DNA of 64,000 bases from Candidatus Thorarchaeota archaeon (GCA_963726195.1 CAVSBO010000004.1:96001-160000); one strand, 5' to 3'. Positions 5,984 to 36,420 are shown, counted from the first letter of the stretch. Program-made: numbers and translations. Notes: a model not told the origin generated them from the sequence alone.

Positions 5984-6707
5984 ATGAGCAAGAAGACACA
6001 GAAGACTCCAGAGAAGAAGCCAGCTCCTCGTCCAGAGGCTGCGCCGAAGAAGGCTGTCGACCCACGCATGCACCCTATCCCCTTGAGGGTGGATTATGAC
6101 GAGAAGCATACGAACGACTTCCGCGGAGACGTAAAGGAAGTTGGCTTTCACTTCGCAGGTTACGAATGGTCCTCCAAAGAGGAGCAGCTTCTCATCGATT
6201 TGCATTATGATCAATTGTACTACTGGAAGTATGCGGAACTGTCAAAAATGGGGCGCGGCTTTCTTGACGGGGAATTGTGGGGAACTCAGTGCCCGAAATG
6301 CGGGGACAAGTTCTTTCCACCAAGGGTCAATTGCTGGCGTATCGAGGAAGACCTCCAGCGCACAAATTGGGTCAAGCTGGCACCCAGTGGACGCGTGCAT
6401 ACTTTCACTGTCGCGGGTTGGTCGGGCCGGTCGTCTCTAAAGAGGCTCCCGTTCGTTCTTGCATATGTAGTCGTAGATGATTGCAAGACTGCAATCGCCA
6501 ACGAACTCAGAGGCATCAAGCCTTGGGATGCTGAGTTCAGCATGCCGGTGAAGGTGGTCTGGGCCAAGAAGGAGGACCGACGCGGAGTGATAACCGACTT
6601 TTGGTTCGAACCGGCTGACGGCTGGAAACCCTCTCCGATGAATGCAGAGAAGGAACGAATCAAGGAGCTCTGCGCGCCAGTTTATGAATGGGTGAAGACC
6701 TGAAATA
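5984..6707 (+). CDS. Zn-ribbon/OB-fold DUF35 protein, partner of the upstream thiolase
   Basis: GTQCPKCG..FFPPRVNC, GRVHTFTV, LPFVLAYV, MPVKVVW. True end probably VKTLK-TAG (one C missing near 6700). Confidence 0.88.
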
Positions 6708-6797
6708 GTGGCAGCTTCTATGGAGTTGGAGATTTTGCCACTCTACGCTTTTTCCTATCGAGGCTGACATTACCTGAATCTCATCTCTCTTCGCATG

Positions 6798-7352
6798 CTA
6801 CATATCTAACTGGAATCTGTGCTGGAGTGGTGAGGTGGTATGATGGCAGGTTAATAGAAAGGATTGTGTGTGTGTGGGAAGAACAGATGTTCTCCATGTA
6901 GTTCTGTTGTGCAAGCACGGCGCCTGCGCTATCCGCAAGCAATGGAGTTTGGAATCGACATGACCATAAGAAGCAACGGAAACGCTACGCTTGCAGTGGC
7001 TGCAGATACACTCCTTCTTGAGCACTTGTCTTGACAGAGACGGACAACCAGCACACCAAAGACAAATCCAAAGAACGTCACAGGAAGAAGGCCAATCATA
7101 CTGAGTGGGTAGAGCCGAAAAATCCTGGTAATAGAAGTTGTAGTTGTCTCCGAAAGCGAATGTCCATAACGGCGCAATAATTACATGTTCCACGTAGAAA
7201 ACTTGATGGCCCACAATCCCATCTCCACTGATTGAACTAAACACTGCAATCGGTGCGAACAATGTCACAAGAGTCATCAAGAGCACAATCTGACGGATTG
7301 TGAGGGCACTGAACCATCTGATCGGCTCTTCATTCCCCGCTCGTTCCTCTCA
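6798..7352 (-). CDS. Hypothetical membrane protein, frameshifted
   Basis: Hydrophobic segments split between ORFs 6798-7286 and 6929-7177; TATA-like tttaata upstream near 7375. Confidence 0.5.
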
Positions 7353-7914
7353 AGGAGGTCACGCAAGAGTCCATATTAAAGCCATTGCCTGCACAACAGA
7401 ACGCGAACAGTGCAGTCTGTGCCGATGGAGCAGACAGGTGGTTACTATGACTGCAAACCTGATGAATTCAGCCGATGCCATCACAGACCTACTAACGATA
7501 TCGAGGAGTGAACAGTAGAACCTAGACCATGAATGATTGCAGCTATTATGACCTGACACGCCGTTTCACCAGCCAAAGAGTGTGGACCCAGGCAGCAGTA
7601 GAGTTTTTCGTTATGTTAACGCTCTTCAGCACAGTGTGGTAGTCGTTTCTACGCACGACTGAGTCCATGGGATGCATCCTGATGCGGAGATTCACGTGGC
7701 AATCATTCGCCTGCACGAGGAGATAGGGTCTCGGCTTCTGTATGGGCAGAGGAGTCAGTCCTAGTAGTGTGTTGAGAGGAAAACAGCCTCTTTCCAGTGT
7801 GCTTTCCTTGAGGAAGAGTGTCTCGAGCAACAGATTGATGGTAGAAGCCACCACTCTCAGCGACTTCTCACATCCTAGAAGAGAATAGACAGTGCTCCCA
7901 TAGTCAGCCAATTC

Positions 7915-9588
7915 CTATTTCTCGGGGCGTCCTAGAGATCTAATACCAATCTGGAATATCAATAGGCCCGACAATGTCAGGGGAAGACTGCCAAACAGAA
8001 AGAACGCATAGCTGGGGTCCGTTCCAAGCCAACCTGAACTAATCACTGCGACTGGCAGTCCTAGCGAAAACACCATCACAACTACGAGGGCCGAGATTAT
8101 GTTTAGCTTGTACATGGAGGAATGTTGGTCCTCGTATGTAGGGTTTATGGCTGTAACTCCAATCCCCGTGAGAGTAGACCCCCACACCAGCAACAGAGCT
8201 TGGCCAAAGATGGTTAGGCTAAGGGGAATGCTGAGTCCTAATAACCAGGTTGCCACGGCAGGCAAAACTGCGAGCGGCAAGGACAAGATAACCATCGCCA
8301 TCAGACGTGCATGAACTAGCTTATCCGATCCTCTTGGCGTAGTCTTGAAAACCCAGAGATGGTTCCTGCTCTCAAGGAAGCCCGTGCCACTAAATGATGC
8401 AACAGCGACAGTCGGGTATACCATGGTTACTGCCATCACCGCAAGGAGGAATATGACTCTAGGAATCAGCGACATGGTTTGGCTGTCCAGCCCACCCATA
8501 CTAGTGACAACAATCTGTACCACAAACCCGGGGATGGTCCCCAGGACAAGCGCGTAACAGTATCTGACAATGTTTGCGGTCTTCCGAAAGAAGTCCTTCA
8601 TTGCAACAACCACAAGTGCACCGGTTGGCCACCCGAAGACACGCCTAATACCGCGAAAGAATCTGTTCTCTTTGCGGACAGTCCTCACGATTTCGGTTCG
8701 GGCACCCAGGTCAAAAGTGAACACTCTATCTGCCGCCAGTGCTCCAGCCACAAGAGACAACAATGCAAAGGCCAACATGAGTACAGCACATCCCTGCGCG
8801 CTAGAGACAAGTACTGACTCAAATGCTTCTAGCTGCGCTGGTGAGAGCAATACCCCACTAAACAGCAGAACACTCCAAGTAACCAAATCCGCTCCCCAAG
8901 TGAAAGGCAGGAAGATTACCAGCTCGCTCTTCATCGACTGGTTCAGCAAATCAGGCAAGTATAGAAACAATATCACGGGCACTATCAGAATCAAAGCAGT
9001 CAGAACGCTAATCACCTTGGCGATGGCATCCCCGCGAGAGGATTGTGCCAGCCTCCCTCGAACTGTCGATGCCAGTATGTCTGATATCCAGAGTGCCGGG
9101 AACGTCGTGACGAGAACGCTCGCGTATATCGCAAGCACCCCTTCCCACTGTACCTGAAAGGTCGATATGACCGGTGAGATTAGGAGAGGTGACAGGCCCA
9201 TGACAAGGAAGAAATAGACAGGAACCTTGCCCAGCCATTGGCCAAAGAGTATGCTACGTGTGCTTGTGCCAGTGCTGAGGAGTATCTCACATTGTGCTAT
9301 CTTCATTTCCTGAACTGCTTTCGATATAGGGAATGCAAAGAACAGTAGCCACAACATCATAGTCACAGCCCTGACCATTGAGGACGGGTCGCTTGCGATG
9401 AGAATACTAAGGGCGGGCAGGAATTGACCGAATACGATGTCCAGCAGCCTAAAGGCGATCGTAGAGACCCATATGATGACGCCCAGCAGAAGTCCGATAA
9501 GGGCACTCTTTCGTGCTCTTCTGATTCTCTCTGTCGAGAGTAGGAACTCAACTTTCGCAATGGCTAGCCATTCCCTAGGCATACTCAC
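7915..9588 (-). CDS. ABC transporter permease (about 12-14 TM)
   Basis: Highly hydrophobic; GTGA-coupled to the upstream ABC ATPase. Confidence 0.8.
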   Translation of the reverse strand: MSMPREWLAIAKVEFLLSTERIRRARKSALIGLLLGVIIWVSTIAFRLLDIVFGQFLPALSILIASDPSSMVRAVTMMLWLLFFAFPISKAVQEMKIAQCEILLSTGTSTRSILFGQWLGKVPVYFFLVMGLSPLLISPVISTFQVQWEGVLAIYASVLVTTFPALWISDILASTVRGRLAQSSRGDAIAKVISVLTALILIVPVILFLYLPDLLNQSMKSELVIFLPFTWGADLVTWSVLLFSGVLLSPAQLEAFESVLVSSAQGCAVLMLAFALLSLVAGALAADRVFTFDLGARTEIVRTVRKENRFFRGIRRVFGWPTGALVVVAMKDFFRKTANIVRYCYALVLGTIPGFVVQIVVTSMGGLDSQTMSLIPRVIFLLAVMAVTMVYPTVAVASFSGTGFLESRNHLWVFKTTPRGSDKLVHARLMAMVILSLPLAVLPAVATWLLGLSIPLSLTIFGQALLLVWGSTLTGIGVTAINPTYEDQHSSMYKLNIISALVVVMVFSLGLPVAVISSGWLGTDPSYAFFLFGSLPLTLSGLLIFQIGIRSLGRPEK

Positions 9589-10338
9589 GTCCTCCAGTCG
9601 AGTAGACGCTCTCTTGGAACCTCGCCGCCAACTATCTTCATGTAAGCCCCTTCCAGACTCGTAGAACTGGTCTTGTCAACTATGTCTTGGGGTGACCCAA
9701 ACGCTATCAGGCGCCCGTTGACGAGTATTCCCAAAATCAGAGACCTCGGCCAGGTCCGTCATGTGAGTACATATGAAGAATGTCGTCTTCGTTTCTTCCG
9801 ACAGAACGCGGATCATGTCCTTGACCAGAATGCTGGCCGCAGGATCCAAATGCGATGTGGGCTCATCAAGAAATACTAGGGAGGGTTCATGTATCAATGC
9901 AGAGGCTACGAGGACCTTCTGCTTCATGCCGGCGCTGTAGGACTCCATCTGGTCATCTTCTCTTCCAGTTAGACCCAGTAAATCAAGCATCGTATCGATG
10001 CGTTTCATCAGAGCACCGTGATCCATATTGCGTAGTGCTCCAAGGAACTCCAGAAACTCGACTGCCGAAAGCTTGGAATAGAGACCAGGTGTTTCAGGGA
10101 GGAAGCCCGTAGCCCTCTTGATCTCGTTTCGCTGCGAGTGGATGTCGAAACCGCACACGGTAGCGCTCCCTTGAGTGGGTCTTAGGAACCCCACAAGTAT
10201 GCGAACAGTTGTTGTCTTTCCAGCCCCATTAGGGCCCAAGAATGCGAATCGACTTCCCTTCGGAATGTCGAGGTCCAGGCCTGCTAACGCCTCAATCTTC
10301 CCGTAATTCTTTGTCAACTTCCTAGTTGTTATTTCCAT
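9585..10338 (-). CDS. ABC transporter ATP-binding protein, frameshift near C-terminus
   Basis: GPNGAGKTT, YSAGMKQK, LVFLDEPT, CTH. Confidence 0.9.
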
Positions 10339-10369
10339 TATCTCCCGTTCCCAAAGCGTAGAGGCCGAT

Positions 10370-10740
10370 TCAGTCTGTATGAAAGTAGTAGAAGGCTGAC
10401 CCCCAAGCAATCGCAAGAGCGACAATCCATAGGGCGAACAACGCGACGGCCGCATTCACCGCGAGCACACCGTATCCTATGTAGGCGGCCATCCACGGCA
10501 TCGCAAACAGGAGGAAAATGAATGCATTCCGGGAGCCTAAGACAAAGAGTTGCATGCTCCGTTCATCCTTCCTCGAGTCTATCTGGCGCGCCACAAAATA
10601 AGAAGAATCACTGCCACAGTTGCAGACGCTACTATGAGCAGATGGAACGCTTGATCCGGGACGGCAATCATCAAGGATACAATGAACACGACAGCAATTA
10701 CTAAAAACGCCGCGTTTGCCAGTATATCCCTACGCTCCAT
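10370..10740 (-). CDS. DUF2178-like membrane protein, frameshift near 10590
   Basis: TM helices flanking KDERS motif; typical XRE-DUF2178-ABC operon layout. Confidence 0.65.
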
Positions 10741-10965
10741 GACTCTTCCCCCATAGTTGAAAATCTCCTCGATAGATATCTCGAACTCGGCTGCTAATCG
10801 GAATGCGAGTTCCAAGGATGGGTTGTACGTGCCCCGCTCTACAGCTATTATCGTTTGGCGAGTGACGCCCACCCTTTTTGCGAGAGCCTCTTGAGTCCAA
10901 ATCCCTGAATTGTCGTCTTCGTTCATGCGCTTTTCCCTCAGTTCCTTGACACGGTTGACAATCAT
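10730..10965 (-). CDS. XRE-family HTH transcriptional regulator
   Basis: NRVKELR...TQEALAKRVGVTRQTIIAVERGTYNPSLELAFRLA. Confidence 0.9.
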
Positions 10966-10984
10966 CCTGATCACGCAGGCCGAG

Positions 10985-11020
10985 ATGTAAAGTATACTAT
11001 ACGTAAAGCAAACTTTACAT
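10985..11020. promoter_or_regulatory. Tandem palindromic operator GTAAAG-N4-CTWTAC upstream of the XRE gene
   Basis: tgtaaag-tata-ctatacg overlapping cgtaaag-caaa-ctttaca, about 20 nt upstream of the ATG. Confidence 0.65.
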
Positions 11021-11051
11021 AAGTGCTTTGCGGTGACGGGCCGCGGCAGCG

Positions 11052-11257
11052 CGAGCTCTCGGGATTCGACCTTGGGATGTGAGTTCCTATGCCGGTGAAG
11101 GTGGTCTGGGCGAGGAAGGAGGACAGACGCGGAGTGATAACCGATTTTTGGTTCGAACCGGCTGACGGCTGGAAACCGCTCTCCGATGAATGCAGAGAAG
11201 GAACGAATCAAGGAACTCTGCGCGCCAGTTTATGAATGGGTGAAGACCCTCAAGTAA
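11052..11257 (+). repeat. Second copy of the DUF35 gene 3' end
   Basis: 11089-11248 matches 6542-6700 with 5 substitutions and 1 indel; ends VKTLK-TAA. Confidence 0.95.
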
Positions 11258-11267
11258 TCATTTCGTT

Positions 11268-11295
11268 GAGTCAGCAGATACTCCACTGCTGGCTC
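11268..11295 (+). terminator. Hairpin after DUF35 copy 2
   Basis: gagtcagcag-atactcca-ctgctggctc, 10-bp stem with one G-U pair. Confidence 0.5.
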
Positions 11296-11432
11296 CGCTT
11301 CATCTTGTCCCGGACGAGATACCTACGACGTTAGGGCGACTGGTGCAATAAACCAACACTGAGTCCCGGACAAGGACTATCGAAGGGTAGGGCAGGCACT
11401 GACGGGCTACCATAGTTTCTGCAGTACAGACT

Positions 11433-11815
11433 CTAGATGGAGTATGAATGCATTCTCATCCACTCTGCAAGCTCTGTGGGTGCCATCTCTCCCTGAGCGA
11501 CTCTTCTGACAGTAGTCTCAGCGTTTTCTGTCGATGCATTGAGTCCAAAACCATTGAGCAGTAAGAAAACCCTGGCTGCTGTCCAACCAGTCCTCTTATT
11601 CCCATCCACGAAGGGATGACGTATCACGATGCAGTGCATAAGTGCAGCGGCCTTGACCACACGGATTTGCCAGTTTCAGTACCGAAAACTGGCATCATGG
11701 GAAGTGCGACGCAGTTCTCCAATGATTCCTCGGATAGGATACCTGCTTCGCCGCCAAAGTCCATGATCATCCTGTCGTGAATCCGGAGTATCTCATCAAA
11801 GCTGAGATATCGCAA
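11433..11815 (-). CDS. doc: Doc/Fic family toxin, frameshift near 11660
   Basis: MRYLSFDEILRIH...KAAAL...HPFVDGNKRTG. Confidence 0.9.
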
Positions 11816-11840
11816 GCGAATCTAAGTCCTTATTCAGAGG

Positions 11841-12043
11841 CTATTGTGCTAACCGTCGTAAGAGTTGTGCATCTTCCTTCGTGATGTCGTCCAGCGCCTC
11901 ATCGAACGTGGCGTTGAACTCCTTTCCCCGAGGCTTTATCCGCAGAGTCGGAGGATGGTTTGGTCGAGTCTCTCTCCAGGAAGTCGTATCCTCTCCAGTA
12001 GACCATACACCTCCTCAGAGACCGAGATTCTCTTTGTGGTCAT
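11841..12043 (-). CDS. Antitoxin with VapB/DUF217-like N-terminus and Doc-neutralising-type tail; frameshift near 11940; not in ORF track
   Basis: MTTKRISVSEEVYGLLERIRLPGERLDQTILRLCG / IKPRGKEFNATFDEALDDITKEDAQLLRRLAQ*. Confidence 0.75.
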
Positions 12044-12111
12044 TAAGGCCAGACCTCAGCGATACATTCGTTCTGATTGATATAAGGCTGTAGATTGAGT
12101 GAATGTGTACG

Positions 12112-12358
12112 TATGTGGTCAAGGATGGGTGCAAGACCGCAGTAGCAAACGAGCTTAGAGGCGAGAAACCGTGGGATCCTGATTTCAACATGCCCGTGAA
12201 GGTAGTCTGGGCGCCGAAGCAGGATAGACGCAGCGTGATCACTGATTCCCACTTCGAGCCAGCAGACTGCCAGAAGCAGGGGCTCAATGATCTCGGAGAA
12301 AGAGCGAATCAAGGAGCTTTGTTTGCCCGTCTATGAGTGGGTAAAGACTCTCAAGTGA
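12112..12358 (+). pseudogene. Third, more diverged copy of the DUF35 gene 3' end
   Basis: YVVKDGCKTAVANELRGEKPWDPDFNMPVKVVW...EKERIKELCLPVYEWVKTLK*, colinear with 6464-6707, many third-position changes. Confidence 0.92.
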
Positions 12359-12364
12359 AAACAG

Positions 12365-12397
12365 GGGCGTCGGCAGACATGTCGCTGCTGACTGCCC
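12365..12397 (+). terminator. Hairpin after DUF35 copy 3, homologous to 11268-11295
   Basis: gggcgtcggcag-acatgtcg-ctgctgactgccc. Confidence 0.5.
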
Positions 12398-12547
12398 ACT
12401 TCTCCCCGATGAGGACGCCTTCCTCCAGAACGCCAACACATGAACATACTCCTTTGTCACGAGATAAGATCGGAGCAATCGCCCCAAGATTCTTTAGCTG
12501 GACCGAGCATCAAGAAGGATTGTTTTAAGAAAAGGAGATGGCGATCA

Positions 12548-12916
12548 TTGCCAAGAGTGAATTACTTTGAGTTTGTGGCCGATAACCCTGAGAGAGCGAA
12601 GAAGTTCTATCAGAGCGTGTTTGGTTGGAAAATCGAGAAGTGGAAGGGCCCAATAGAGTACTGGCTTGTGACAACAGGCGTCGCAAACGAACCCGGCATA
12701 GACGGAGGTTTCCTCAAGAGGCAGAGTCCACAGGATGTATCTGTTAACTTCATCGAAGTGTCTGACGTCGACAAGTACACGAAGCTCATAGAGAAGTCCG
12801 GCGGAACCATCGTACACCCCAAGCAGGCAGTCCCGGGTGTTGGCTGGATGGTCTACTTCAAAGACCCCGAGGGCAACGCTTGGGGTATGATGCAGAATGA
12901 TCGGTCGGCCAAGTAG
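12548..12916 (+). CDS. VOC/glyoxalase family protein
   Basis: RVNYFEFVADNPERAKKFY..VFGW, GIDGG, VPGVGWMVYFKDPEGN; aggag RBS and TTG start. Confidence 0.9.
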   Translation: MPRVNYFEFVADNPERAKKFYQSVFGWKIEKWKGPIEYWLVTTGVANEPGIDGGFLKRQSPQDVSVNFIEVSDVDKYTKLIEKSGGTIVHPKQAVPGVGWMVYFKDPEGNAWGMMQNDRSAK

Positions 12917-13293
12917 TCGTACTTCGGGCTATGATCACAGGTTGCAGTCGATTACAGATGAGCACAGACCCGGAAACATCGGATCTTGAAGGCGGTAGAT
13001 TCTTGCACACCGTCACGTTCAGGGCCCTTCAAGAGTCCTTACCTTTGTCCCTTGCTCGCTACTATCCGCCATGTCATGGCACACTGTCGAGAAAGGTCAG
13101 AAATACCTTGCGCTGAGCACAATAGTGGACCACTTCCCGACAACTCAGAGGAGGGTGCGAAGCCACGGCTCCGAATCGCGAGAAATAGCGAATCTAGTCC
13201 TTCCGCTAACCCGAAGCTACTCAAACGATGAGCATTTATCGTGAAAGGCACGTAGTTCTGCTAGCCCGTTGAAGTTCATCTGTGAGGTAAGTC

Positions 13294-13524
13294 TTGACGA
13301 TGCGAATCGATTACGACCCCGTTGCGGATGCCGTCTACTTTCATTTTAGGACTGCCGCTGTTGCAGACAGTGTGGAGATACGCGAGGGAGTAGTAGTAGA
13401 CTACGATGCCGACGGCAGTATTTGTGGCATTGAGATTCTCTCATACTCGAGACGCAACATGGATCTTAACCATCTCATAACCCTCCGAGAGGAGGAAATC
13501 GTCGCTGAGGTCGCCGTTGTTTGA
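13294..13524 (+). CDS. DUF2283 putative antitoxin
   Basis: MRIDYDPVADAVY...VVVDYDADGSICGIEIL. Confidence 0.88.
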   Translation: MTMRIDYDPVADAVYFHFRTAAVADSVEIREGVVVDYDADGSICGIEILSYSRRNMDLNHLITLREEEIVAEVAVV

Positions 13525-13759
13525 TCCTATTCACAAGGCACGCCTTGGAGCGGATGAAACAGAGAGGCGTTACCAGAGTGAAGTTGAGGCGGTCGTTGTT
13601 GGCGAGGCAATCACTGCTGTCGCAGATGGTAGTGGAAATCTAGTAGTGCAGAAAAGATTCAGGAATCGGATCCTTCGTGTGCACTTCCGTATTGTGAACG
13701 GCGACAGGCTCATTGTGACAGCATACTGGACCTCGAAGCTGAAGAAGTATCCGGCGTAG
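13521..13759 (+). CDS. DUF4258 (RelE-like) putative toxin, frameshift near 13580
   Basis: TTG at 13521 gives ILFTRHALERMKQRGVT, then ...ILRVHF...IVTAYWTSK; TTGA overlap with DUF2283. Confidence 0.8.
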
Positions 13760-13887
13760 AATGACAGGCGCAGAGCCTCTCGCCCTTCGATTATACGGCA
13801 ATCAAGATGAGCACTTGGATCCGCCTGCATGTTGAGAAATGAATTTAGGCTACCAGTGGACTCGTTCTTTGGTCAGATGGTGACGAC

Positions 13888-14355
13888 ATGAGCGCATCTT
13901 CTCCTCTAGACGAATGGCTTTTCCTCATTGGCACTTGGAAGGGCAAAGCGAAAGGGGGTCAGTTCGGCGAGAAAGACACGATTGAAGGCAACGCTGTCTT
14001 TTCGAGTGAGCCCGGTGCTATGTTTATCATGAGTACAGGTGAGAACTGGTCCGGAGGTCAGCTTCTCCACAAGAACATCAGCATCATGTTCTATGATGAC
14101 GTCGCAAGGAAGTTCAGGCGCAAGACCTTCTTCTCATATGGATTTGTCAACAACGAAGTGGAATGTGCAAGAACCAAGAACGAGATAACATTCGACATTA
14201 CTATGGAGCCATTGCCCAAGCAATTCGAGGGGACCAAGTGGCGTTCCTACATGAGAAAGATATCTGACACCAAGATAGCCACGGGACTTCAGACATCAAA
14301 AGAGGGGAAGGAATTCAAGTCCTACGGTGAATCAATACTTGAGAAACAAAAATAG
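13888..14355 (+). CDS. Beta-barrel protein (DUF1579/nitrobindin-like)
   Basis: FLIGTWKG N-terminal motif; beta-strand pattern. Confidence 0.6.
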   Translation: MSASSPLDEWLFLIGTWKGKAKGGQFGEKDTIEGNAVFSSEPGAMFIMSTGENWSGGQLLHKNISIMFYDDVARKFRRKTFFSYGFVNNEVECARTKNEITFDITMEPLPKQFEGTKWRSYMRKISDTKIATGLQTSKEGKEFKSYGESILEKQK

Positions 14356-14477
14356 GAAGATATGGAAGGACTTGTTCTCAGTGACCAGTACAACTGATTC
14401 CATGAGCGCAAGACACAATGTCCTCTTGCTGCTCTGAATGCAAAGTCCATTCTGTGGTCGTCGGAGGATATTGAGAG

Positions 14478-14897
14478 TTACTTGAGCGATCTACTCACTG
14501 AGGTAATGAAGTCCTTCAAGTCCTTGATTGCAGAAATGGCACTCTCGTGAACGATAGTGGGGTCTACGTCCAGATACATATGGACCAATACGTTCCTCAA
14601 CTTCACGAGCTCTATGAGTCTCCCTGCGAGTGCCGAACTGATGATACGGTTCTGTCCGATAATCTTCACCGCATCAATGTATGATTCCGGTGTTCCCCAA
14701 TGGTTGTGGGCCACAAGGTGAGTTGAGATATCAATTACGGCTTGGGCTGCCAACTGCAGATTCCTCTCAGTTGCGCCTTGGAGCACTTGGTCAGATAGGA
14801 ACCCTTCCCGGTCAGTCGAAGCCGCGACCTTTAGCACCTCAACTGCTCTGGCAATTCTGTCCAATCGGAGCCTTATGACAAGCGGGTCTACTGTCAC
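14478..14897 (-). CDS. hepT: HepT/DUF86 HEPN RNase toxin
   Basis: ERNLQLAAQAVID, RNVLVHMY (RX4HXY). Confidence 0.9.
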   Translation of the reverse strand: MTVDPLVIRLRLDRIARAVEVLKVAASTDREGFLSDQVLQGATERNLQLAAQAVIDISTHLVAHNHWGTPESYIDAVKIIGQNRIISSALAGRLIELVKLRNVLVHMYLDVDPTIVHESAISAIKDLKDFITSVSRSLK

Positions 14898-14902
14898 CCA
14901 GA

Positions 14903-15313
14903 CTACGCCTCCAGAGACTCATTCAGGTAGTTCTCAATGTAGGTTTTCCAGTCCGGATATAACGTGAGGACGGTCTCAACAAATCGTAGCCAGCATTCCT
15001 CATCTTTGACATAGAGCAGTTTTCCGTCCCTCACAACTCGAAAGCAGAGAGACAGAGGTGCTGAGTTAAGCAGTGTTATGTCTGTCTTCTGACCGGCCTC
15101 TGAGTCGAAAAGCCCCAAGAGATCTTTGAAGATGGGCGCCCATCGTTCCTCAGGACTGTGGACAAAAACCCCGATGTCCAAATCACTCATTGCATGAGTA
15201 TGGCCTGTTGCTGCAGAACCGAACAGAATGATGAAATCGACTTGGTCACCAAGCAAACCCAAGACCAATGTCACGATTGAGTCTAGTCGCTTCTTCAGTT
15301 CCAGGAGAACCAC
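14903..15313 (-). CDS. mntA: MntA-type nucleotidyltransferase antitoxin
   Basis: ILFGSAATG...SDLDIGV, DITLLN, GKLLY. Confidence 0.9.
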   Translation of the reverse strand: MVLLELKKRLDSIVTLVLGLLGDQVDFIILFGSAATGHTHAMSDLDIGVFVHSPEERWAPIFKDLLGLFDSEAGQKTDITLLNSAPLSLCFRVVRDGKLLYVKDEECWLRFVETVLTLYPDWKTYIENYLNESLEA

Positions 15314-15833
15314 ACTCCTACGTGCTCGGGATTCTGTCCTGCGCGTCTGTATTTATGCACGGCGGTTATGCTTGCTCGTCCACTCGTCTGCCGGCAGTAG
15401 TAGTATGCTGGTTCCGATAGTAGGATCTCACATAGTCCATGTATGACGTCAGTCAACCAACGGTTAAGACATCTTGGTCAGGCTCACGTATTGGAGCGTA
15501 AGTGAAGCGAAAGAATGTCAATTGAATCACCACCTCTCGTAATGGCTGACTACATATTACGAAGCTTATCTGCCGATGACAAGCGGCCAGATGCCCGTAG
15601 CATAGCCTTCCTACAGAGCTCGTCCTTCAAGGGTATGCAACAGCTGCGTAGAAGCTGGACAATCTTGGACATTTTCGAGTAGGGGCTTAAATAGCTTGAA
15701 CCAGACTGCTCTTTGAGGCTAACTCGACACACACCAGCCTCAAGGAGTGCGACCCCAGTGCCGTTTCTGGGAGGGCAAAGACTCCTGTGTCCAACTTTGT
15801 CCAACTCACAATGAACGGTATCAACTCAATGAT

Positions 15834-16151
15834 TCAGGTCATCGCTACGAAATCGGTACACCTTAAGCCGGGCGCTATCTCCACCGCGCTGCTTTCGTGT
15901 ACTGGTTCCATGTCGCTGGCTATCTTGTGGATTCTCTTGACGACCAGAATCTTGGTCTCACCTAGTGGCGCCACTTCCAGCTGAACTGTATCACCTATGT
16001 CGAAATCATCGCGGTCAGTGTAGGCATCGATCTTAACCTTCACCACAGTCCTGTTTTCTGTTTCCACAGCAATGAATCCGTACAGCGCGGGCGGATTGCC
16101 GAACCGACCGAGCTGACTCGATACTACGACACCACTTAGTATTGTGTTCAT
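15834..16151 (-). CDS. Small hypothetical protein, probable OB fold
   Basis: Beta-rich, FDIGDTVQLEV; TATA-like box at about 16185. Confidence 0.6.
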   Translation of the reverse strand: MNTILSGVVVSSQLGRFGNPPALYGFIAVETENRTVVKVKIDAYTDRDDFDIGDTVQLEVAPLGETKILVVKRIHKIASDMEPVHESSAVEIAPGLRCTDFVAMT

Positions 16152-16293
16152 CTCAGTATCACCATTAACTATAGTGAATTCGACCTTTATACACTATTTG
16201 AAAGCGGATGTGAACCACGAGCCAACCTTCAGCAAGTGATGCGTGTGATGCCTGCTGGTAATCTCGCGCAATACACGCGGAATCTCGCCTGCC

Positions 16294-17812
16294 TTACCAC
16301 AAGTAGGTGCCAAACAGCTGCATTATGACGACCTGAATGAAGACGAGGACCAGCAGCGTAATCTTCTCTCGTCGGTCGATTCCCGATCTCTCAATGTAGA
16401 CAAGCACCGGGATTAGTGCGAAGGGCAAGACGAACATGCAGATTCTTGCAGTCTCGCCCTTCTTTGGTGCTCCAGTTAGGAAGAGGAGCAACAGAGCCAA
16501 CAGGGATGAAAGGAAGAGGTTGTACTGTTTCTTGCTTGTCGGATCTTTGGATACATCAGACCGCAGAATCTTGGCACCACGGTATGCAAGCACTGTCAGT
16601 ACCGGTCCGAAGAAGACCATGATATCCAGGATGTCTTCTGCTCTTGTCGACACGTAGTGACCAAGGCTGGACAATAGCATGAATCCTCCCGGGTTCTCTG
16701 AGGTGGTTGCATATTCGAAAGCCTGAACGTAGTTGAAGTCCAAGGAGAACAGAAGGAAGACGTATGCCAACGCAACAACTACACAGACAGCGACGAGATA
16801 ACGTACGGAGTATAGGATTTCCTTGAGCCAAGCAATGGTGCCCTTCGACCTGTCGAATCCTGTCTGGAGTCAGCTCGAAGATGAGCAGAAGCATCACCAC
16901 GTACACAAACAGGAAGGAAATGAAGGTTCCCAAGAAGAGACAGACGATGGTCCCTGCGAGCCTCGCCTTCACGTTCGGCTGAAGGTAGAAGTAGACCGTT
17001 CCGGCCACCAATGTGGCTACCACCGCATAGATGTTCGCCAGATAGTAGACTTGAACGGCTGGGAGAATGAGGAACAGAAACGAACCGTATCTAGAGGCCT
17101 CAGATCCAATCAGTCGATTGTAGATTCCCCTGACAAAGAACACCGAGGCGAGCGAGCATACTACGGCGAGAGCTATCGCGATAGCCCCTGCACTTTGAAA
17201 TAGCACATAGAACATGTAGATGGTCAACACTGCACCGGGCGGCTGAGTCACTGCATGCAACGACAGTGTCCCCTGAATTGAGTTGAAGCTGGCTATGAAC
17301 TGCAACGGGTTCAGAATCCGTACTGCGTCGGTAAGCAATTCAGAGCCGCCGCCAATTGCCGACACGATGGAACTCCAGCCCTGAATCAGGTTTGTGGCAA
17401 CCATGAGACCGATGCCTAGCGGAACCAGCAGTGCTGATCTCGGTATGTTTGAGTTGTTTCGCCTAAGAGCGTATGCAAACGTTCCGAATCCACCAAGCAA
17501 TGCACCGGCAAAAGCGATTTTTCCGAGCGACGGTGATACAAGGCTGCCCCACAGCGGCCATAAGTTGAAACCGAACATGCCCATGCCGGGCCGCACGAAG
17601 GCTCCCCCGTCTGGCGCTGGGCCTCCGAAGTTTCGGCCTGGCGGTCCTCCGAAGGATACGGAACCGCTGAACAGGTAGTAAAGAGAGACTACTACAGCAA
17701 CTCCCGCAATCATCATGAAATAGCCCTTGATGTGGTCTGAGTCTAGAAGCTTAGGATGTCTGGGTTCATCGTTAGTTGTCTCAGTCAACACTATCACAAT
17801 CCACAATCTCAT
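16294..17812 (-). CDS. Multi-pass membrane protein, GT-C glycosyltransferase-like, frameshifted near 16.8 kb
   Basis: LSLHAVTQPPG, many TM helices, late GETARI motif. Confidence 0.6.
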
Positions 17813-17910
17813 GTGTTCGTCCTATTGTCATTGCACCTGGGCGTCAAACAGGATATAACGAATGGCCGACTTCGAGCCAGAATCATGCCCAAATCGTGCC
17901 CGCATTTCCT

Positions 17911-18342
17911 TCATTCAAAGCTGAGGTACAGCAGTACGATGAGGGCGAATGTGCAGAACAGGTCTGGGATAATCGCGAAGGGCCCGAGTCCAGTCTCATA
18001 GAAGCCGAACGAATAATGAATAATCGGGTTGGACGAGAGTGCATACATGAGGAGCACCAGAACCATGATAATAAGGCCCAGCGTGAAACGAGACCTGACT
18101 TTGCGATAGGTGCCCACGTATATCCAGAGTAGAGATAGTATCAGAGCCAAGTTGACAAAAGATACCACTGTCTTGATGGCAACTAGCTGGATTGTCTCTG
18201 CAGCCTGCGGAGGAGGTAGTGGCGGAAAGGGTGTGCCCGGACGAGGGAGGAACGATGCCGAGAGCGCCAGTCCTACGAAACCGGCGATTATGACTGATAT
18301 GACTATGCACAACATGAAGGCATTCTGTTTCATTTCACTCAA
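17911..18342 (-). CDS. 4-TM membrane protein typically encoded next to archaeal ArsR regulators
   Basis: YRKVRSRFTLGL...LSSNP. Confidence 0.7.
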   Translation of the reverse strand: MSEMKQNAFMLCIVISVIIAGFVGLALSASFLPRPGTPFPPLPPPQAAETIQLVAIKTVVSFVNLALILSLLWIYVGTYRKVRSRFTLGLIIMVLVLLMYALSSNPIIHYSFGFYETGLGPFAIIPDLFCTFALIVLLYLSFE

Positions 18343-18351
18343 CTTCTCTTT

Positions 18352-18654
18352 TCATTCACCGCTTTTGCCAGTTTCCCCAAATCTCACCCAGATTTCGTTG
18401 AAGGAATCGTAGTCGTCCTCTAAGTCCTGTGACAGGAAGTAGATCATGCCGTACCCATCACCTTGGGTCACGAGCAATCGATTCTTGACCAAAACATCCA
18501 AGTGATGCCGTACCGTTTTGTAGTCGAGCCCCAGCATCTGAGCAATCTGGTTTGCATTAGCAGGCCTATCATGAAGCGTACTGATGATTCTGGCACGGTT
18601 GGCTCCACCTCGGGTCCCAGCGATAAGCCACCACAGTACCCGTTTCATGCTCAT
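18352..18654 (-). CDS. ArsR/winged-helix transcriptional regulator
   Basis: LWWLIAGTRGGANRARII..L..RPANANQIA..LDYKTVRHHLDVL. Confidence 0.9.
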   Translation of the reverse strand: MSMKRVLWWLIAGTRGGANRARIISTLHDRPANANQIAQMLGLDYKTVRHHLDVLVKNRLLVTQGDGYGMIYFLSQDLEDDYDSFNEIWVRFGETGKSGE

Positions 18655-18793
18655 GATATTCAAGCGAGGGCCTATGTTTCCGGTATTAAGTTCTTTTAGA
18701 CCACGCCGATCGACAAGAGCAGACAATGACTCGTCACGAACAGAATATAGAAATAGGCCCTCATCGCAGTCCACGATTCGTGGCGAGAACCTG

Positions 18794-19919
18794 ATGACCG
18801 TGCATGAAAGTAAGAAAGCATCTATCCCACGCACGTACTTTGCAATTGCTGTATCTGACGTTCATCTCGGTTACAAGAAGAGTGACCGTGACGCATTCAA
18901 GGCGTTCGTCTATGATTTCCTACCAAAGCAAAGTGTCGATCACTTTGTCATGATGGGCGACATCCTTGACCTGTGGACACGGGACGATGACAAGTTATTG
19001 AAAGAAGTCAGTGGCCTACTTGAGCAGCTTTCCTCACTTAAGGAAGAAGGAAGAATCGGCGTCATTGACTATGTAATTGGGAACCACGACTACGTCATTG
19101 AAAGTCATAAGGCCAAATTCCCCGTGCTCAATGCTTTCGATTTCAAGAGTCCGGCATCTGAACAACCGGCTTGGCTCCTCTTGGAACCTCCAAAGCAGAA
19201 GGGTACTCGAAAGAAGACGTATGGCTTCCTTCACGGGCACCAGCTTCTTGAGGGTCGTGCTGGAAAGACGTACGATGGCACCTGCCGATTCTTGTGCACT
19301 CAAGGAGACTTCAGAGGCTGGCTGTCACGTTTGCTCTTTGATGTCAGGAACTGGGTTCCGATTATCTTCGCGGCGGCATCACTCTTATTCTTGGCCCAGT
19401 CCAGATACTATTCGGCGTTGTTCGCAGCAATCATTGCTATCGCAACTGGCGTAACACTATTCAAGAGTCCTCCAAACCTAGAAGCTCATTTCCGCCAGTA
19501 GCTATGATGAGCAGATAGAAGAGCTGGTCAAGAGCATGCGATGGAGAGACCGACGCAAGCTTGTTCGATATTTGAAACAGTCTCCGGAAAAGAGAAGAGG
19601 TATGGAGCCTCTGCAATTGAAGGCGATTGAACGTGCTTACCACCCCGTTCGGCGCAAACTTTCTGACGTCAAGGTGCATGAGGCCCACACTGCGTTAAGC
19701 AAATCACTGGCAATGCCTCTGGATGAATCAGCGTACTCTGCGTTGGTCACTGCGGAGCATAGAGTGCTCGGACACACTCACAAGAAAGTCGAAGATCCAC
19801 ATTACACAAACTTGGGCTGTTGGGAGAAGAAAGCGCAGCATTGGTACTTCACCATTAGCGAGAACGGTGACTACCGTCTTGAGGAATGGAAGGTAGACAC
19901 CTCTTCGAAATCCAAATAG
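18794..19919 (+). CDS. Calcineurin-like metallophosphoesterase (LpxH-like) with internal TM hairpin, frameshift near 19480
   Basis: SDVHLG, GDILD, GNHD, HGH, GHTH, NLGCW. Confidence 0.8.
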
Positions 19920-20057
19920 CAATCCAGAACTGGCGCTTGACGGGGGACGTCCGGTCTCCGTCCACCAGTCGAAGAGCAACATTCATTGGCCCTTATCAGC
20001 GGATTGAATGCAAAATCCCCTGTCAGGGTGTCACATCTTGGGTGTCGTCCTTCTGCG

Positions 20058-22042
20058 CTAGATTTGATGCCGTGCCGATATTCTGACGACCGAGAGAAAT
20101 GCCAGAGCAGAAGCTCCGCCAATACCGACGAGCAGAATTGCCACCATGGGAGCTGATTGAGCAGAATCTGGTATGTGAGGGTCATGGCCCGTCTGGTATT
20201 CCACTATATTCGTGAGACCATCTCCGTCAGGATCCAATTGTGAATCGTCAACTAGCGGATTGAGGCCATGGGCTACCTCCCAACCATCAGGCATGCCATC
20301 TCCATCCGTGTCGTTGTTATGCGGGTTGGTCCCAAGTGAGTACTCGACGATGTTGATTAGCCCATCATGGTCGGGGTCTTCTCTCGAATCGTCAACAAGA
20401 GGATTGAGGTTGCTGTCGGCCTCCCACCCGTCTGGCATGCCGTCCCCATCCGTGTCATTGTTCTGGGGATTAGTGCCCAGATTGAATTCAGCGATGTTTG
20501 TGAGCCCGTCCTTGTCGGGGTCTTGCTTTGTATCATTGACAAGGGGGTTCAGACCGTATTTGATTTCCCACGCGTCATTCATTCCGTCGTGATCGGTATC
20601 CGCGCTAAATCGGTCTAACCCCAATATCATCTCTTCACCATTCGAGACTCCATCGCCATCGGAGTCGACATCGAACGCATTGTGCCAGAACTCATTGCTG
20701 TCTGTAATGCTGTCTCCTTCAAGGTCTGTGTCGTACGCCAGCACCACATCCACTCTGATTGGATTTACACCTGTGTTGGTTATCCGAAGTGTATGGATTC
20801 CCAGTGTCGTTGTATTGAGGCGTAGTACTGTTGCATTCTCTGCAGACTCGTCACCAGTACTGTCTGAGGCCAGTTCAGAGGAGTTAGGGTCCAACACTGA
20901 GAACCGGAGTCCTGTTCCACCTGACCACGATCCATTGACTTGGACTTGAGTCGGGATTGTCATTTCGAAAGGATAATCGCGGCTCTCACCCGGAGAGATA
21001 TCTGTTGTGTACTTTGAGCATGTCAGCTGACCCTGAACCCGGCTGAGAGTGAATGCAATGCTGGCACCGATGCTAGCGACAGCAATCGCGGCGACCGTGT
21101 AGTTGTACATAGGGTTGTTCCATGTGTCTTGTGGAGTGTGGTAAGCGTTGTCATGCGCACTCCCACTCTCGAAGACGAATATGTTGCGTTTGTACCCCTT
21201 TTGCACGAATGAGTAGTGGTCTGATTGTCTCCAATACTGGAAAGATGATGATGGCGATGGGAGAATGATAGGGGAGGCGAAATCTGCGCTCATGCACCTA
21301 GCTAGCTCAGCCCAGTATCTGGCATCCTGAGGAATTGTTCCACTGCCCACTTGGTAGTTCATGAGTATCCTCTCATCTGCTGGCAGGCCGGAATCCTGCA
21401 CAAGAAGCATATCGACATTGAAGTTCACAAGGACGTCAATCCTCCAGCTGAGAAACATGCTTGACACTTCTCTACTTCCGTAAAGACCCTGTTCTTCGTT
21501 GTTCCACAGGCAGAAGTAGATGTCCAGCGGCCACTCATACTGCGAAAGTACACGCGCCAGTTCAAGGACGGCTGCAACTCCTGAACCATCGTCATTTGCC
21601 CCGGGCGCACCCGGCACCGAATCAAAATGCCCGCCGATTACAATGGAAGGCCCGTTTGCCCCGAGATATCCTGGCAGCTTTCCTATGACAGACTTGTAGG
21701 TTCCAAGAATGCTGACACTGATTCTGCCGCTCGAAAGGCCGACTAGTTCTTGGGTCAGCCACGATATCGCCCGGGTATTTGCATCGGACCCAAAGTATCG
21801 GCTACCGTTTTCTGTGAGCTTGACTATGAACTGCCGATACGAAGTAAGCGAGAACGTTCTCATAGACCGTCTTGGCCAGATTCGTCGCATATACGAGAAC
21901 AACTGGATGCTTCTTGGCCTTGCGTCTCGGGAGATGATGGAGTGATGTTGACGAAACTGGATTCCCCTTGAAGCGTCATGGAGACCAGCGGGCTTAAAAT
22001 GAAGAGGAGTGAGCAGACTGTGAAGACGTACAGCTTCTTCAA
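20058..22042 (-). CDS. Secreted, membrane-anchored M28 peptidase with TSP3-like Ca-binding repeats, frameshift near 21900
   Basis: Signal peptide, GGHFDS, GANDDGSG, NNEEQGL, SDH, YHT..D, DxDGDG repeats, C-terminal TM. Confidence 0.88.
20170..20603 (-). repeat. Three 48-aa (144-bp) DTDGDGMPDGWE...DPDxDGLxNxxE units
   Basis: Visible in the translation and as diverged DNA repeats. Confidence 0.85.
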
Positions 22043-22254
22043 GGAGCGTTCCTTGGCCTCGGAGTGGTTCGCTGCTCTATTGTACTTTCTGATGAGCGCG
22101 GCATATGGTTTCGCGTGTGCAATGGGACCTAGCATCTGCCAGCATTCGACAGAACTTGACTCCGAAGCTCGGCAACCTAAAATTCATGTTGTTTCTACTT
22201 CGATAGAAAAGCGCAGAATGGACTCTTGTCCCGAACAGAAAAGGGGGCAAAAAC

Positions 22255-23926
22255 TTGAGAATAGCACTAGCTCAGGTCGACCCGACCATGGGCGACTTTC
22301 AGGGAAATCTGAGAAAGATTGGCAATCTTGTTGAGGATGCAAAGAAGAATCACGCAGACATTGTGGCTTTCCCGGAATTGGCCGTCTCAGGATATCCCCC
22401 GCAAGATCTGTTGTATGAGCATTCGTTCGTTAAGGCCAACAAGGCTGCAGTTGAGGAACTAGCTGGCAAGACTGATGGAATCGTTGTCATCGTGGGTTTC
22501 GTGGACTTCGATGAAGAATGGCACCTTTACAACTCCGCCGCACTAATACGAAATCATGAAGTGATGGCCGTTGTCCACAAGACGCTTCTTCCAACATACG
22601 ATGTGTTCGATGAAGCTCGTTATTTCCATCCGAACAGCCGCGAATCAATCGCTCCGGTGTTGGTCGAAGTGGGCAAAGCTTCTATCAAACTCGGAGTAGA
22701 GATTTGCGAAGACCTGTGGGACCATGACTACGACACAAAGGTAACTGACATACTCGCTGAGCGAGGCGCCCAGCTCGTGATCAACATCTCCGCTTCACCT
22801 TTCTACGTTGGCAAGCGGTTCGAACGTGAAGCGTTGTTGAAAGAGAAGGCAATGAAAAACAAGATACCGATGTTCCTTGTCAATCTGGTTGGCGGGCAAG
22901 ACGAGCTCGTTTTTGACGGTCAGAGCCTCGTCGTTGACGCGACAGGAGAGACAGTAGCTGCAGGAGCACCGTTCAAGGAGGACCTGCTCTTGGTCGACTT
23001 CTATCCCGGCAAGCGTATCTCGAAGAAGACCGCACTACCAGAGTATGACAAGGACGAAGAGATACTCAATTGTCTAGTGTTAGGGATTCGTGACTACTTC
23101 TTGAAGACAGGTTTCCAGAGAGCAGTTCTCGGTCTCAGCGGAGGCATCGATTCATCTGTAACAGCTTGCATCGCAGTGGAGGCCCTCGGTTCAAAGAATG
23201 TGATTGGCTTCTCCATGCCGTCCAAGTTTTCGAGTTCTCACAGCAGAACAGATGCCGAGCAGCTGAGCTCAGAATCTGGGCATACGTTTGGTCAAGTTCC
23301 CAATTCAAGACATAGTGGACTCATATCACCGTACTCTAGAGCGTCCCTTGAGTGAAGTCAGGGCTTTATTCGGGCTCGGTGTGGACAAAGATGATTCTGT
23401 AGCTGATGAGAACCTTCAGCCAAGGGCGAGAGGCAATTGCCTAATGGATTTCTCGAACCGGCTGAAGGATCTGAAGATACTCGTTTTGAACACAGGGAAC
23501 AAGACAGAGCTTGCCTTAGGATACTGCACACTCTATGGAGACATGAGTGGGGGAGTGGGCGCTCTCGGCGACGTAAGTAAACTCCAAGTGTTCAGGCTCG
23601 CAGACTACGTAAACCGCAGGGCCGGTCGAGAGATTATCCCAAAGAGCATTCTGACCAAGACGCCTTCACCTGAGCTCAGAGACGACCAGTTTGACCCATT
23701 CGACTTCTCCGTTGTTAGCCCCCTGGTCGATGAGGTAGTTGAGAACCGACGGAGCAGACAGGAATTGATTGAGATGGGTTACCCTCCTTCTGCTGTTGAG
23801 GACGTTTACACTCGAATTAGAAGAGCAGAGTATAAGCGATTCCAAGCTCCTCCGTGCATCAAGATCACCCGGAAAGCTTTCGGAACCGGATGGAAAATGC
23901 CCATTGTGAACCGTTACCGTGGATAA
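22255..23926 (+). CDS. nadE: Glutamine-dependent NAD+ synthetase, frameshift near 23270
   Basis: Nitrilase domain (FPEL, K..LP.YDVFDE, EICEDLW) plus GLSGGIDS, ENLQPRARG, TGNKTE, YCTLYGD. Confidence 0.95.
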
Positions 23927-34721: not shown

Positions 34722-34861
34722 TTTTAGTCAACCCGGCCGGATTCGTCTAGAATCTCCCTTTAAAACTCACCGAGTAGCCCGAGTCAACTCTATGGCTACC
34801 ATCTCCCTTAAATCCTCAATTTGATGTCGCCCGCTCAAAACTTGACCATGAGACGACTGAC

Positions 34862-36031: not shown

Positions 36032-36420
36032 TGAGCGAACAACCGACACTCGAAGCGTACAAGAAGAACATTCAGGAAGGCAAGTTCAAGGCTTACAGGT
36101 GTACAAAGTGTAAGGCTGTTATTGCTCCTCCCCTGAGTACGTGCTACAACTGTGGAAACACCAAGATGGAATGGACGACAGTGAGCGGCAAAGGCAAGCT
36201 TGTTTCCTTCACAGTCATCTTCGTAGCACCCGACGAATTCGCGGCCGAGGCTCCGTACATCGTTGGCATAGTAGAACTCGAAGAGAAGGCGAGAGTTACA
36301 GCACGACTCGTCGGTTTCGATCCCAACAAGCCGGAGTCCATAAAGGTGGGCACACCCCTCAAGCTTGACTACGAGAAGGGCAAGTCCGGCAAGACCTATC
36401 TTGCTTTCAGGCCTGCCTGA
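36031..36420 (+). CDS. DUF35 Zn-ribbon/OB-fold protein
   Basis: CTKC..PP..CYNCG, GKLVSFTV, APYIVGIVEL; coupled to the thiolase. Confidence 0.92.
   Translation: MSEQPTLEAYKKNIQEGKFKAYRCTKCKAVIAPPLSTCYNCGNTKMEWTTVSGKGKLVSFTVIFVAPDEFAAEAPYIVGIVELEEKARVTARLVGFDPNKPESIKVGTPLKLDYEKGKSGKTYLAFRPA

Follow-up and report, generated by a model that had tools for sequence, protein, structure and literature searches.

Displaced copies of a DUF35 gene end alternate with cargo behind a conserved thiolase-DUF35 pair in Thorarchaeota

Gene ends stranded behind the DUF35 gene in the window and in relatives

We analyzed a stretch of 64,000 nt from a Candidatus Thorarchaeota archaeon (bases 96001-160000 of contig C4 in genome G000; hereafter the window, its version of the locus being abbreviated W), whose relatives are annotated as Thorarchaeota. 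In this window, the 3′ end of a gene for a DUF35 protein, the neighbour of an SCP-x-type thiolase gene, is present in three copies: as the end of the intact gene (tail 1, the last ~240 nt, 6464-6703) and as two displaced copies further downstream (tails 2 and 3), with cargo genes between them. According to gene order in relatives, the space after the thiolase-DUF35 pair is a recurrent insertion hotspot. As to how the array arose, the best reading, which we hold with a little more confidence than doubt, is an integrase-independent, homology-anchored sequential displacement of gene ends, followed by gene conversion among the tails; we infer both the recombination mechanism itself and the order of events.

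The three copies, first noticed in a sequence-only reading, were recovered by BLASTN and by local alignment. Tail 2 matches the gene at 171 of 178 nt (96%, against 6521-6700) in the local alignment and at 94.5% over 181 nt (E=1e-73) when BLASTN is run within the 2.9-Mb genome, and the corresponding values for tail 3 are 172 of 235 nt (73%, against 6464-6699) and 72% over 237 nt (E=3e-30). The earlier count of differences for tail 2 proved right: 6542-6699 differs from 11089-11248 by 5 substitutions, of which 4 are synonymous and one is K>R, and by a single 1-nt indel, and the endings are CTC-AAG-TAA in the copy and (C)TG-AAA-TAG in the gene. Its start, placed at 11052, had to be moved, since homology begins at 11070 and is robust from 11089, the codon of Met187. 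Tail 3 had been described as diverged mostly at third codon positions while still reading ...PVYEWVKTLK before its stop. It does so after a frame change, and it is rich in third-position differences (11, 8 and 25 at codon positions 1, 2 and 3, with 54 sites each), but positions 1 and 2 are also raised, differing about twice as often as in gene-to-gene comparisons, and invariant residues have been replaced (G22S, W35Q and P37Q, A2 numbering). Each tail copy includes ~45 nt of post-stop hairpin. Because the tails kept their own stop and their own terminator and diverge mostly at third codon positions, they are whole former functional gene ends, terminator included.

Among relatives, the thiolase-DUF35 adjacency is kept throughout and the downstream content varies. 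The first window gene past DUF35 that relatives keep beside it is NadE. L050 and L041 represent empty target sites, with NadE just 112 and 237 nt past DUF35, and the gap widens to 858 nt in L040, 3.2 kb in L023, 8.1-8.3 kb in L031 and L032, and 15.5 kb in the window. In ~20 of 88 contigs the assembly ends less than 1 kb past DUF35, as expected of a strain-variable site. The integration hotspot that had been proposed from the window is thus borne out by synteny, which shows both empty sites and different cargo behind the same gene. The thiolase, the upstream member of the conserved pair, shares 82-94% protein identity among family relatives, with DUF35 as its constant neighbour, and is the likely homology anchor.

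We collected displaced tails from a metagenome scan with a tail profile, in which the best 80 of 225 matches were examined, and from relatives in GTDB, obtaining at least 16 of them in at least 13 independent Thorarchaeota loci or contigs. The orphan tails have the same orientation as the gene and are 5′-truncated at variable points. Their 5′ boundaries lie 63, 69, 72, 76, 96, 97, 105, 108, 116, 119, 119, 170-189, 203, 246 and 360 nt before the stop, such that tail lengths form a near-continuum from 63 to 360 nt (21 to 125 codons), and the 3′ end falls at about the stop in 15 of 16 tails, the exception being tail A of L060, which is 43 nt short. The sequence just past the tails reads as inverted repeats, and those that were folded (window tails 2 and 3, and one L060 tail) are stable. 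A shared motif at the junctions of the 16 tails was not evident by eye, no motif search having been run. Cargo between gene and tail spans 0.5-9.3 kb, with many segments of just 0.5-2 kb, and codes in relatives for NosD-like proteins, methyltransferases, a hydrolase, a GNAT protein, an M3 peptidase, a CAAX protease, a ferredoxin-type membrane protein and an HNH/NUMOD3 plus HerA-like pair. This last pair lies in the 9.3-kb cargo preceding the 360-nt tail (L043:11384-16320), where a 618-aa NUMOD3-repeat/HNH protein is encoded beside a 1028-aa HerA-like (DUF87) ATPase, and may be a defence module. Divergence growing with distance from the gene, as noted before, is a feature of the window; it does not hold in every relative, L060 being an exception to it.

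Some of these loci can be compared directly with the window. L052, from the same genus and another metagenome, has the order gene, small hydrophobic protein plus XRE regulator, tail 2, HicAB-like pair, 586-aa protein and VOC gene, and its XRE block and tail are 75% identical to window 10384-11239. An orthologous tail 2 with an intact frame is also present in L049, where it starts in the same Met187 region. In the L052 tail copy, start, stop and invariant residues are lost, which rules out a general reading of tail 2 as a conserved small gene. In L060, two tails enclose a GNAT cassette whose edges are separated from the aligned tail ends by ~20-30 nt. It is 94% identical to a segment of L035, in which the shared segment is not bounded by tails at its edges.

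Exchange among tails and a second version of the locus

Contig C2 (L144), 5,578 nt long, is an alternative version of window 6236-11755 and was used to judge both sequence quality and recombination. The C-terminus ...EWVK(T/S)(L/M)K followed by a stop is found in 16 of 16 DUF35 orthologues, whereas the window gene stops early, with VKT in place of VKTLK. C2 has an extra base that the end of the window gene is without, and the true stop would probably lie 6 nt further downstream (VKTLK) if the base missing at ~6699 is an assembly indel. The hairpin after the DUF35 gene folds weakly in the window (z -1.2), with bases missing relative to C2, and its GGCAG...CTGCC stem is complete in C2. The two versions break different genes: the window has defective copies of Doc, the small membrane-like gene and the end of the ATPase gene, all intact in C2, which has the defect in the permease instead. 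Long-read indel errors may account for these frameshifts in the window, for those in tail 2 and NadE, and for the early DUF35 stop. Given this complementary breakage, tail frameshifts and the early DUF35 stop are weak evidence of decay, replaced invariant residues being the better evidence; in C2, tail 2 has an intact 55-aa frame, yet carries the replacements K11M and R20G at invariant residues. Between 6700 and 7130, the window differs from C2 by ~20 single-base gaps in 430 nt, nearly all of them a base, usually C, missing in the window. The cluster resembles a consensus error confined to this region, or basecalling trouble linked to modification, rather than evolution.

The C2 gene also provides evidence for exchange of gene ends. 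Compared to the gene of the G002 species (L038/L053), it is 75% identical up to window position 6533 and 91% identical from there to the stop, with a synonymous divergence (dS) of 2.07 upstream vs 0.55 in the tail. The breakpoint at 6533 is significant in a maximum chi-square test (p<=0.001) and coincides with the 5′ boundary of tail 2, such that a tail-2-length segment has been swapped into or out of a functional gene. The C2/G002 contrast is the informative one, synonymous sites being saturated among genus members (proportion of synonymous differences, pS, 0.57-0.98), and comparing synonymous rates of the thiolase and of DUF35 segments as a means of detecting foreign tails was likewise uninformative through saturation except for this pair. 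The tail swapping that had been suggested, here visible as tail-length exchange in live genes, and the polar stacking downstream of the gene both hold.

The orthologues of tail 2 in C2, L052 and L049 are 67-82% identical to the adjacent genes or to the window copies. Between the tails 2 of W and C2, there are 5, 3 and 23 differences at codon positions 1, 2 and 3, a coding-type pattern indicating that tail content derives from functional alleles and not from neutral decay of one stranded copy. The orthologous tails in L052 and L049 imply that tail 2 is older than the split of these lineages, which are saturated at synonymous sites. That tails 1 and 2 of the window are nevertheless 96% identical is best read as the result of recent gene conversion.

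Compared along its length, C2 is 76-80% identical to W in the DUF35 gene, ~99% from ~6700 to ~11075, and 71-91% in tail 2 and Doc. The ~99% block corresponds exactly to cargo 1 including the left hairpin, with tail 2 and its own hairpin outside; at the left edge, identity jumps from 77-80% to at least 89% at ~6700, and differences within cargo 1 are nearly all 1-nt indels. A single attachment-site (att) or Campbell-type crossover with a shared, element-borne tail was considered and rejected for this pattern, as all four crossover combinations predict a near-identical W/C2 tail pair and the observed pairs are 75-80% identical. We favour a reading in which C2 represents a sister strain whose flanks were overwritten by divergent alleles, with conversion tracts ending where homology stops at cargo 1, because this needs no new mechanism and predicts sharp edges. 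In the same bin, the remaining small contigs are likewise local variants of large ones. A second reading, in which cargo 1 moved as a precise cassette, remains beside it.

Cargo and neighbouring features

The features of the locus are compiled in Table 1. Copies 1 and 2 of the gene end had been said to enclose a membrane gene and an XRE-DUF2178-ABC operon. This order stands, but the DUF2178 label does not, the 134-aa protein in question having hydrophobic stretches and no Pfam support. Likewise, in the proposed Doc toxin-antitoxin pair between copies 2 and 3, the toxin is secured by its Pfam match, whereas the small gene upstream can be called antitoxin-like by position and size only. We also considered cargo 1 as a transposon-like unit and rejected this, as it has no terminal inverted repeats and the lone 7-nt direct word near both ends, TGGCAGC, is compatible with chance. 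When 87 genomes of the order were searched for further copies of cargo 1, and GTDB genomes for relatives of its permease, only distant paralogues came up (32-35% protein and 64-79% DNA identity), with no informative context.

Beyond tail 3, the island continues with genes for a VOC/glyoxalase protein, DUF2283 and a small partner, a HepT/MNT pair, an ArsR regulator, a metallophosphoesterase, an M28 peptidase and membrane proteins, of which only the VOC gene and the next open reading frame (ORF) are common to the same-genus contigs L052, L053 and L058. A tail relic directly upstream of the VOC gene, which would mark tail 3 as the ancestral end, was not found in same-genus contigs. An intergenic element of ~190 nt at 15628-15819 is 94% identical to L058:6153-6344, where it lies upstream of the thiolase in that Thorarchaeota contig, and 83% identical to G000:C4:88206-88317, and its behaviour is that of a small mobile repeat, similar to a miniature inverted-repeat transposable element. 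NadE is present as two overlapping ORFs (22255-23355 and 23288-23926), reflecting either a frameshift error or a real split, and the tBLASTn matches in relatives overlap in a similar manner. Some 27 kb downstream, a compact trio at 33519-36420 comprises a 400-aa gene, a 389-aa thiolase and a 140-aa DUF35-like ORF; in view of this second set, the pair formed by the thiolase and the 239-aa DUF35 protein, whose N- and C-terminal extensions are long, is a paralogous one.

Table 1. Features of the DUF35 locus in the window, and gene-end copies elsewhere in the genome (window coordinates unless a contig is named).
Feature	Position	Strand	Basis or remark
SCP-x-type thiolase, 420 aa	4718..5980	+	Pfam Thiolase_C_1, Thiolase_N
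Intact DUF35 gene, 239 aa, ChsH2-like zinc ribbon and OB fold	5984..6703	+	Pfam OB_ChsH2_C, zf-ChsH2
Post-stop hairpin and T-tract of the current DUF35 gene, terminator-like	6704..6760	+	Fold
Cargo 1	6761..11069	-	Pfam ABC_tran, HTH_3
Cargo 1: degenerate membrane-protein gene	~6800-7350
Cargo 1: ABC-2-like permease	7915-9588		No Pfam family
Cargo 1: ABC ATPase	~9585-10344		Pfam ABC_tran
Cargo 1: small hydrophobic membrane-like protein, 134 aa	~10370-10745		No Pfam match
Cargo 1: XRE regulator	~10730-10965		Pfam HTH_3
Tail 2, displaced DUF35 3′ end, Met187 region to TAA stop	11070..11257	+	Alignment, BLASTN
Terminator-like hairpin of tail 2	11258..11311	+	-18.6 kcal/mol, z -3.85
Cargo 2, overall span	11433..12050	-
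Cargo 2: Doc (Fic-family) toxin, split by a 1-nt indel near 11653	11433-11815	-	Pfam Fic
Cargo 2: small antitoxin-like gene upstream of Doc, frame-broken (two frames)	~11840-12050	-	Minus-strand translation
Tail 3, older displaced DUF35 3′ end, ~82 codons, ends ...PVYEWVKTLK-stop	12112..12358	+	Alignment, BLASTN
Terminator-like hairpin of tail 3	12359..12411	+	-21.8 kcal/mol, z -2.4
Rest of variable island, no tail relic	12412..22254	.	Pfam
NadE, glutamine-dependent NAD synthase, conserved right border of the hotspot	22255..23926	+	Pfam CN_hydrolase and NAD_synthase
Gene-end copy locus, AP-endonuclease-2-type TIM-barrel gene	G000:C13:118256-122187 (L145)		90% identity, 3.7-kb cargo including TnpB fragment
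Gene-end copy locus, 361-aa gene	G000:C5:2348-3693 (L146)		80% identity
Gene-end copy locus, GT2 glycosyltransferase	G000:C5:58509-60653 (L147)		71% identity
Locus of the integrase-linked insert	G000:C17:26360-29991 (L149:1361-4992)		403-aa PF00589 protein in 2.4-kb insert

How the gene ends may have been displaced

In the displacement reading that we prefer, DNA from related Thorarchaeota, either linear or as a circle carrying part of the DUF35 end, would pair with the conserved operon, and the incoming copy would provide the intact gene end, the terminator and the donor's downstream genes. The far joint would be illegitimate, or would form at the end of the circle's homology, inside or past the resident gene, and the resident tail, 5′-truncated and with its own stop and terminator, would thereby be shifted downstream. 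Repeated rounds would yield the polar array of gene, cargo 1, tail 2, cargo 2 and tail 3. The tails would stay recombinogenic, being converted by the live gene, swappable into it and probably mediating cassette loss.

Sequential displacement of this kind has been proposed for the effector-immunity arrays of the Vibrio cholerae type VI secretion system (T6SS) and for Rhs, with an upstream anchor, an illegitimate far joint and older 3′ parts shifted downstream (PMC5361080, citing Jackson et al. 2009 for displacement arrays of the polymorphic-toxin loci Rhs and contact-dependent inhibition, CDI). The DUF35 locus resembles these arrays in its conserved upstream anchor gene, in new 3′ ends that arrive with downstream cargo, in older 3′ fragments of variable length stranded downstream in the same orientation, in the absence of a recombinase, in orphan ends that can recombine back into the live gene, and in the mechanism proposed, homology-facilitated illegitimate recombination. 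It differs in that the tail of a conserved housekeeping-type gene is displaced instead of a variable toxin tip, that the cargo (toxin-antitoxin pairs, ABC transporter, enzymes) is unrelated to the gene and is no cognate immunity gene, and that the host is an Asgard archaeon with no evident selective logic for keeping orphan ends. The locus has the testable features of displacement arrays, with a presumed illegitimate joint, and lacks the defining ones of integrase islands. In complex class 1 integrons, a circle with part of the 3′-conserved segment integrates by homologous recombination, and a partial duplicate then flanks the new cargo. The circles are made there by ISCR1 rolling-circle transposition, whereas no element comparable to ISCR1 was seen at the DUF35 locus.

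Neither a tyrosine nor a serine recombinase is present in the window or in its 15.5-kb island, in agreement with the sequence-only reading. Genome-wide (2.9 Mb, 89% complete), the search for a trans-acting enzyme that had been recommended gave one PF00589 (tyrosine recombinase) match on C17 and one resolvase (PF00239, serine) match on C3, both outside the window contig, and no match to an IS110-type transposase or to Cas1. Relatives of the C17 integrase were not detected in any DUF35 locus by tBLASTn, and no DUF35 tail occurs on IMG/VR viral contigs. No integrase or transposase was found in the cargo between gene and tails at the ~15 loci tested. Here, gene-to-tail ORFs were Pfam-scanned individually for the window, L027, L030, L043, L053, L057, L058 and L060; the small cargo ORFs of L052, L064 and L067 were covered by a bundle scan only or left unscanned, and the L088 cargo was unscanned. 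The bundle scan of 127 ORFs gave the 25 commonest families, such that a single integrase could be missed by the bundle alone.

A genome-wide self-BLAST for local direct repeats revealed three further genes whose last 100-224 nt are copied 0.9-3.7 kb downstream, in the same orientation and behind integrase-free cargo (Table 1). Among such gene-end copies, only the C17 locus has an integrase. Its insert lies between a displaced 5′ radical-SAM fragment (CxxxCxxC region, ~74% identical) and the intact radical-SAM gene, and looks like an integrase-linked gene-head swap. An automated screen flagged ~10 possible mirror-image copies, in which a gene's 5′ end is copied upstream, and of these the C17 case was checked. 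Flagged candidates with the 5′ end 0.9-6 kb upstream include G000:C4:62937-63124/69081-69268, C17:84219-84601/85537-85919 and C3:649326-649477/650611-650762. The recurrence of the pattern at many unrelated genes, in a genome in which just one tyrosine and one serine recombinase were found, argues for a general host-driven recombination route.

Several points weigh against displacement by host recombination. The ~99% W/C2 block ends within ~10-15 nt of both cargo edges, which would fit a site-specific cassette mechanism too. The illegitimate joining is deduced, and no donor/recipient pair shows a junction forming; in a literature search, homology-facilitated illegitimate recombination was not found to have been demonstrated in Asgard archaea. 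Moreover, the C17 case shows that integrase-mediated gene-end swapping exists in this organism, and the genome being 89% complete, a recombinase could sit on unassembled DNA.

In the strongest rival reading, a tyrosine or serine recombinase with the DUF35 3′ end as its target moves integrative elements whose att sites are the tails, the integrase having been lost from every island or acting in trans. We regard this as unlikely, though it deserves serious weight. Archaea are known to have elements inserted in 3′-distal parts of protein genes, and tandem arrays as well; the thaumarchaeal integrated mobile genetic elements come with integrases or casposases and short att sites (PMC6563490). Tycheposon islands contain degenerate arrays and remnants with partial tRNA copies (bioRxiv 10.1101/2020.12.28.424599). 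As in these islands, the incoming end keeps the target gene intact, partial direct repeats in the same orientation flank the inserts, newer inserts stand next to the gene in a polar tandem array, and related genomes have empty sites. The sharp edges of the W/C2 block and the integrase-bearing 2.4-kb element on C17, flanked by a duplicated gene end, add to the case. It was on such grounds that the locus had been likened to tRNA-targeting islands, an analogy that our results do not support: no integrase was found in the cargo at the loci tested, many segments are as short as 0.5-2 kb and often consist of a single gene, and no free element carrying the site turned up among viral contigs. The repeats are long, vary continuously between 63 and 360 nt and are 73-96% alike, unlike short fixed att cores. 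No common crossover core of fixed extent was evident, as tail 5′ ends are continuous and the W/C2 comparison fits no single crossover position; a crossover through a shared, element-borne tail predicts a near-identical tail pair in place of the 75-80% observed. Finally, the same architecture recurs at unrelated genes of a genome with one tyrosine and one serine recombinase.

A good deal more doubtful is a dedicated cassette exchange in Thorarchaeota, perhaps in Asgard archaea generally, that works without an element-encoded integrase and in which the gene end plus hairpin would be a docking site used again and again. Such a system would take up single-gene cassettes, stack them and transfer them with precision from one lineage to another, and the sharp-edged, ~99% identical cargo 1 in two divergent backgrounds and the GNAT cassette of L060 and L035 would be instances of this. 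If true, it would amount in function to an integrase-less integron, operated by host recombination or by a recombinase not yet recognised. Tested against an integron-like array, the locus has no integrase, and the edges of the W/C2 block do not lie within the hairpins.

We give still less credence to the idea that the tails were retained as useful, be it as expressed C-terminal DUF35 peptides, as terminator modules insulating the cassettes or as integron-like hairpin sites. The intact frame of tail 2 from Met187 in C2 and L049 and the excess of third-position differences among tail-2 copies would suit retention, but invariant residues, start or stop are gone from tail 3 and from the L052 tail, C2 tail 2 carries K11M and R20G, lengths vary from 21 to 125 codons, and conversion by live genes would account for the coding-type divergence just as well. 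A stable hairpin follows every tail that was folded, and the GNAT cassette that lies between two tails in L060 recurs at 94% identity in another genome; the W/C2 block, however, takes in the whole left hairpin and leaves out tail 2 with its hairpin, which is not where an attC-type crossover would fall, and the shared L035 cassette is not tail-flanked at its edges. Lastly, an assembly artefact, a chimera of co-occurring strains joined via the repeated tail, is scarcely credible: although the bin holds alternative short contigs from a second population and both versions of the locus have indel errors, the run from the gene over cargo 1 and tail 2 to Doc is covered independently by C2, and L052, which comes from a different metagenome, reaches from its gene through the XRE module and tail 2 into the genes behind. 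The gene-cargo-tail order is also seen in a dozen further contigs of unrelated samples, some of them 80-150 kb long, and copies that differ by 4-28% are too dissimilar to be collapsed or wrongly joined by an assembler.

Gene gain and loss in Asgard archaea is little understood, and published surveys of Asgard elements mostly describe tRNA-linked or short-motif integration by encoded integrases. The DUF35 locus is a clear and recurrent marker of another route, in which small cassettes form polar stacks behind a conserved operon, and relic gene ends record the order of events, with evidence of ongoing exchange at the strain level. If the exchange is site-specific after all, a recombinase or docking site that has escaped recognition would be implicated. 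If it is driven by host recombination anchored in conserved genes, this would explain how recombinase-poor genomes come to have flexible islands, and the relic tails could serve to date acquisitions in uncultured lineages and to put them in order.

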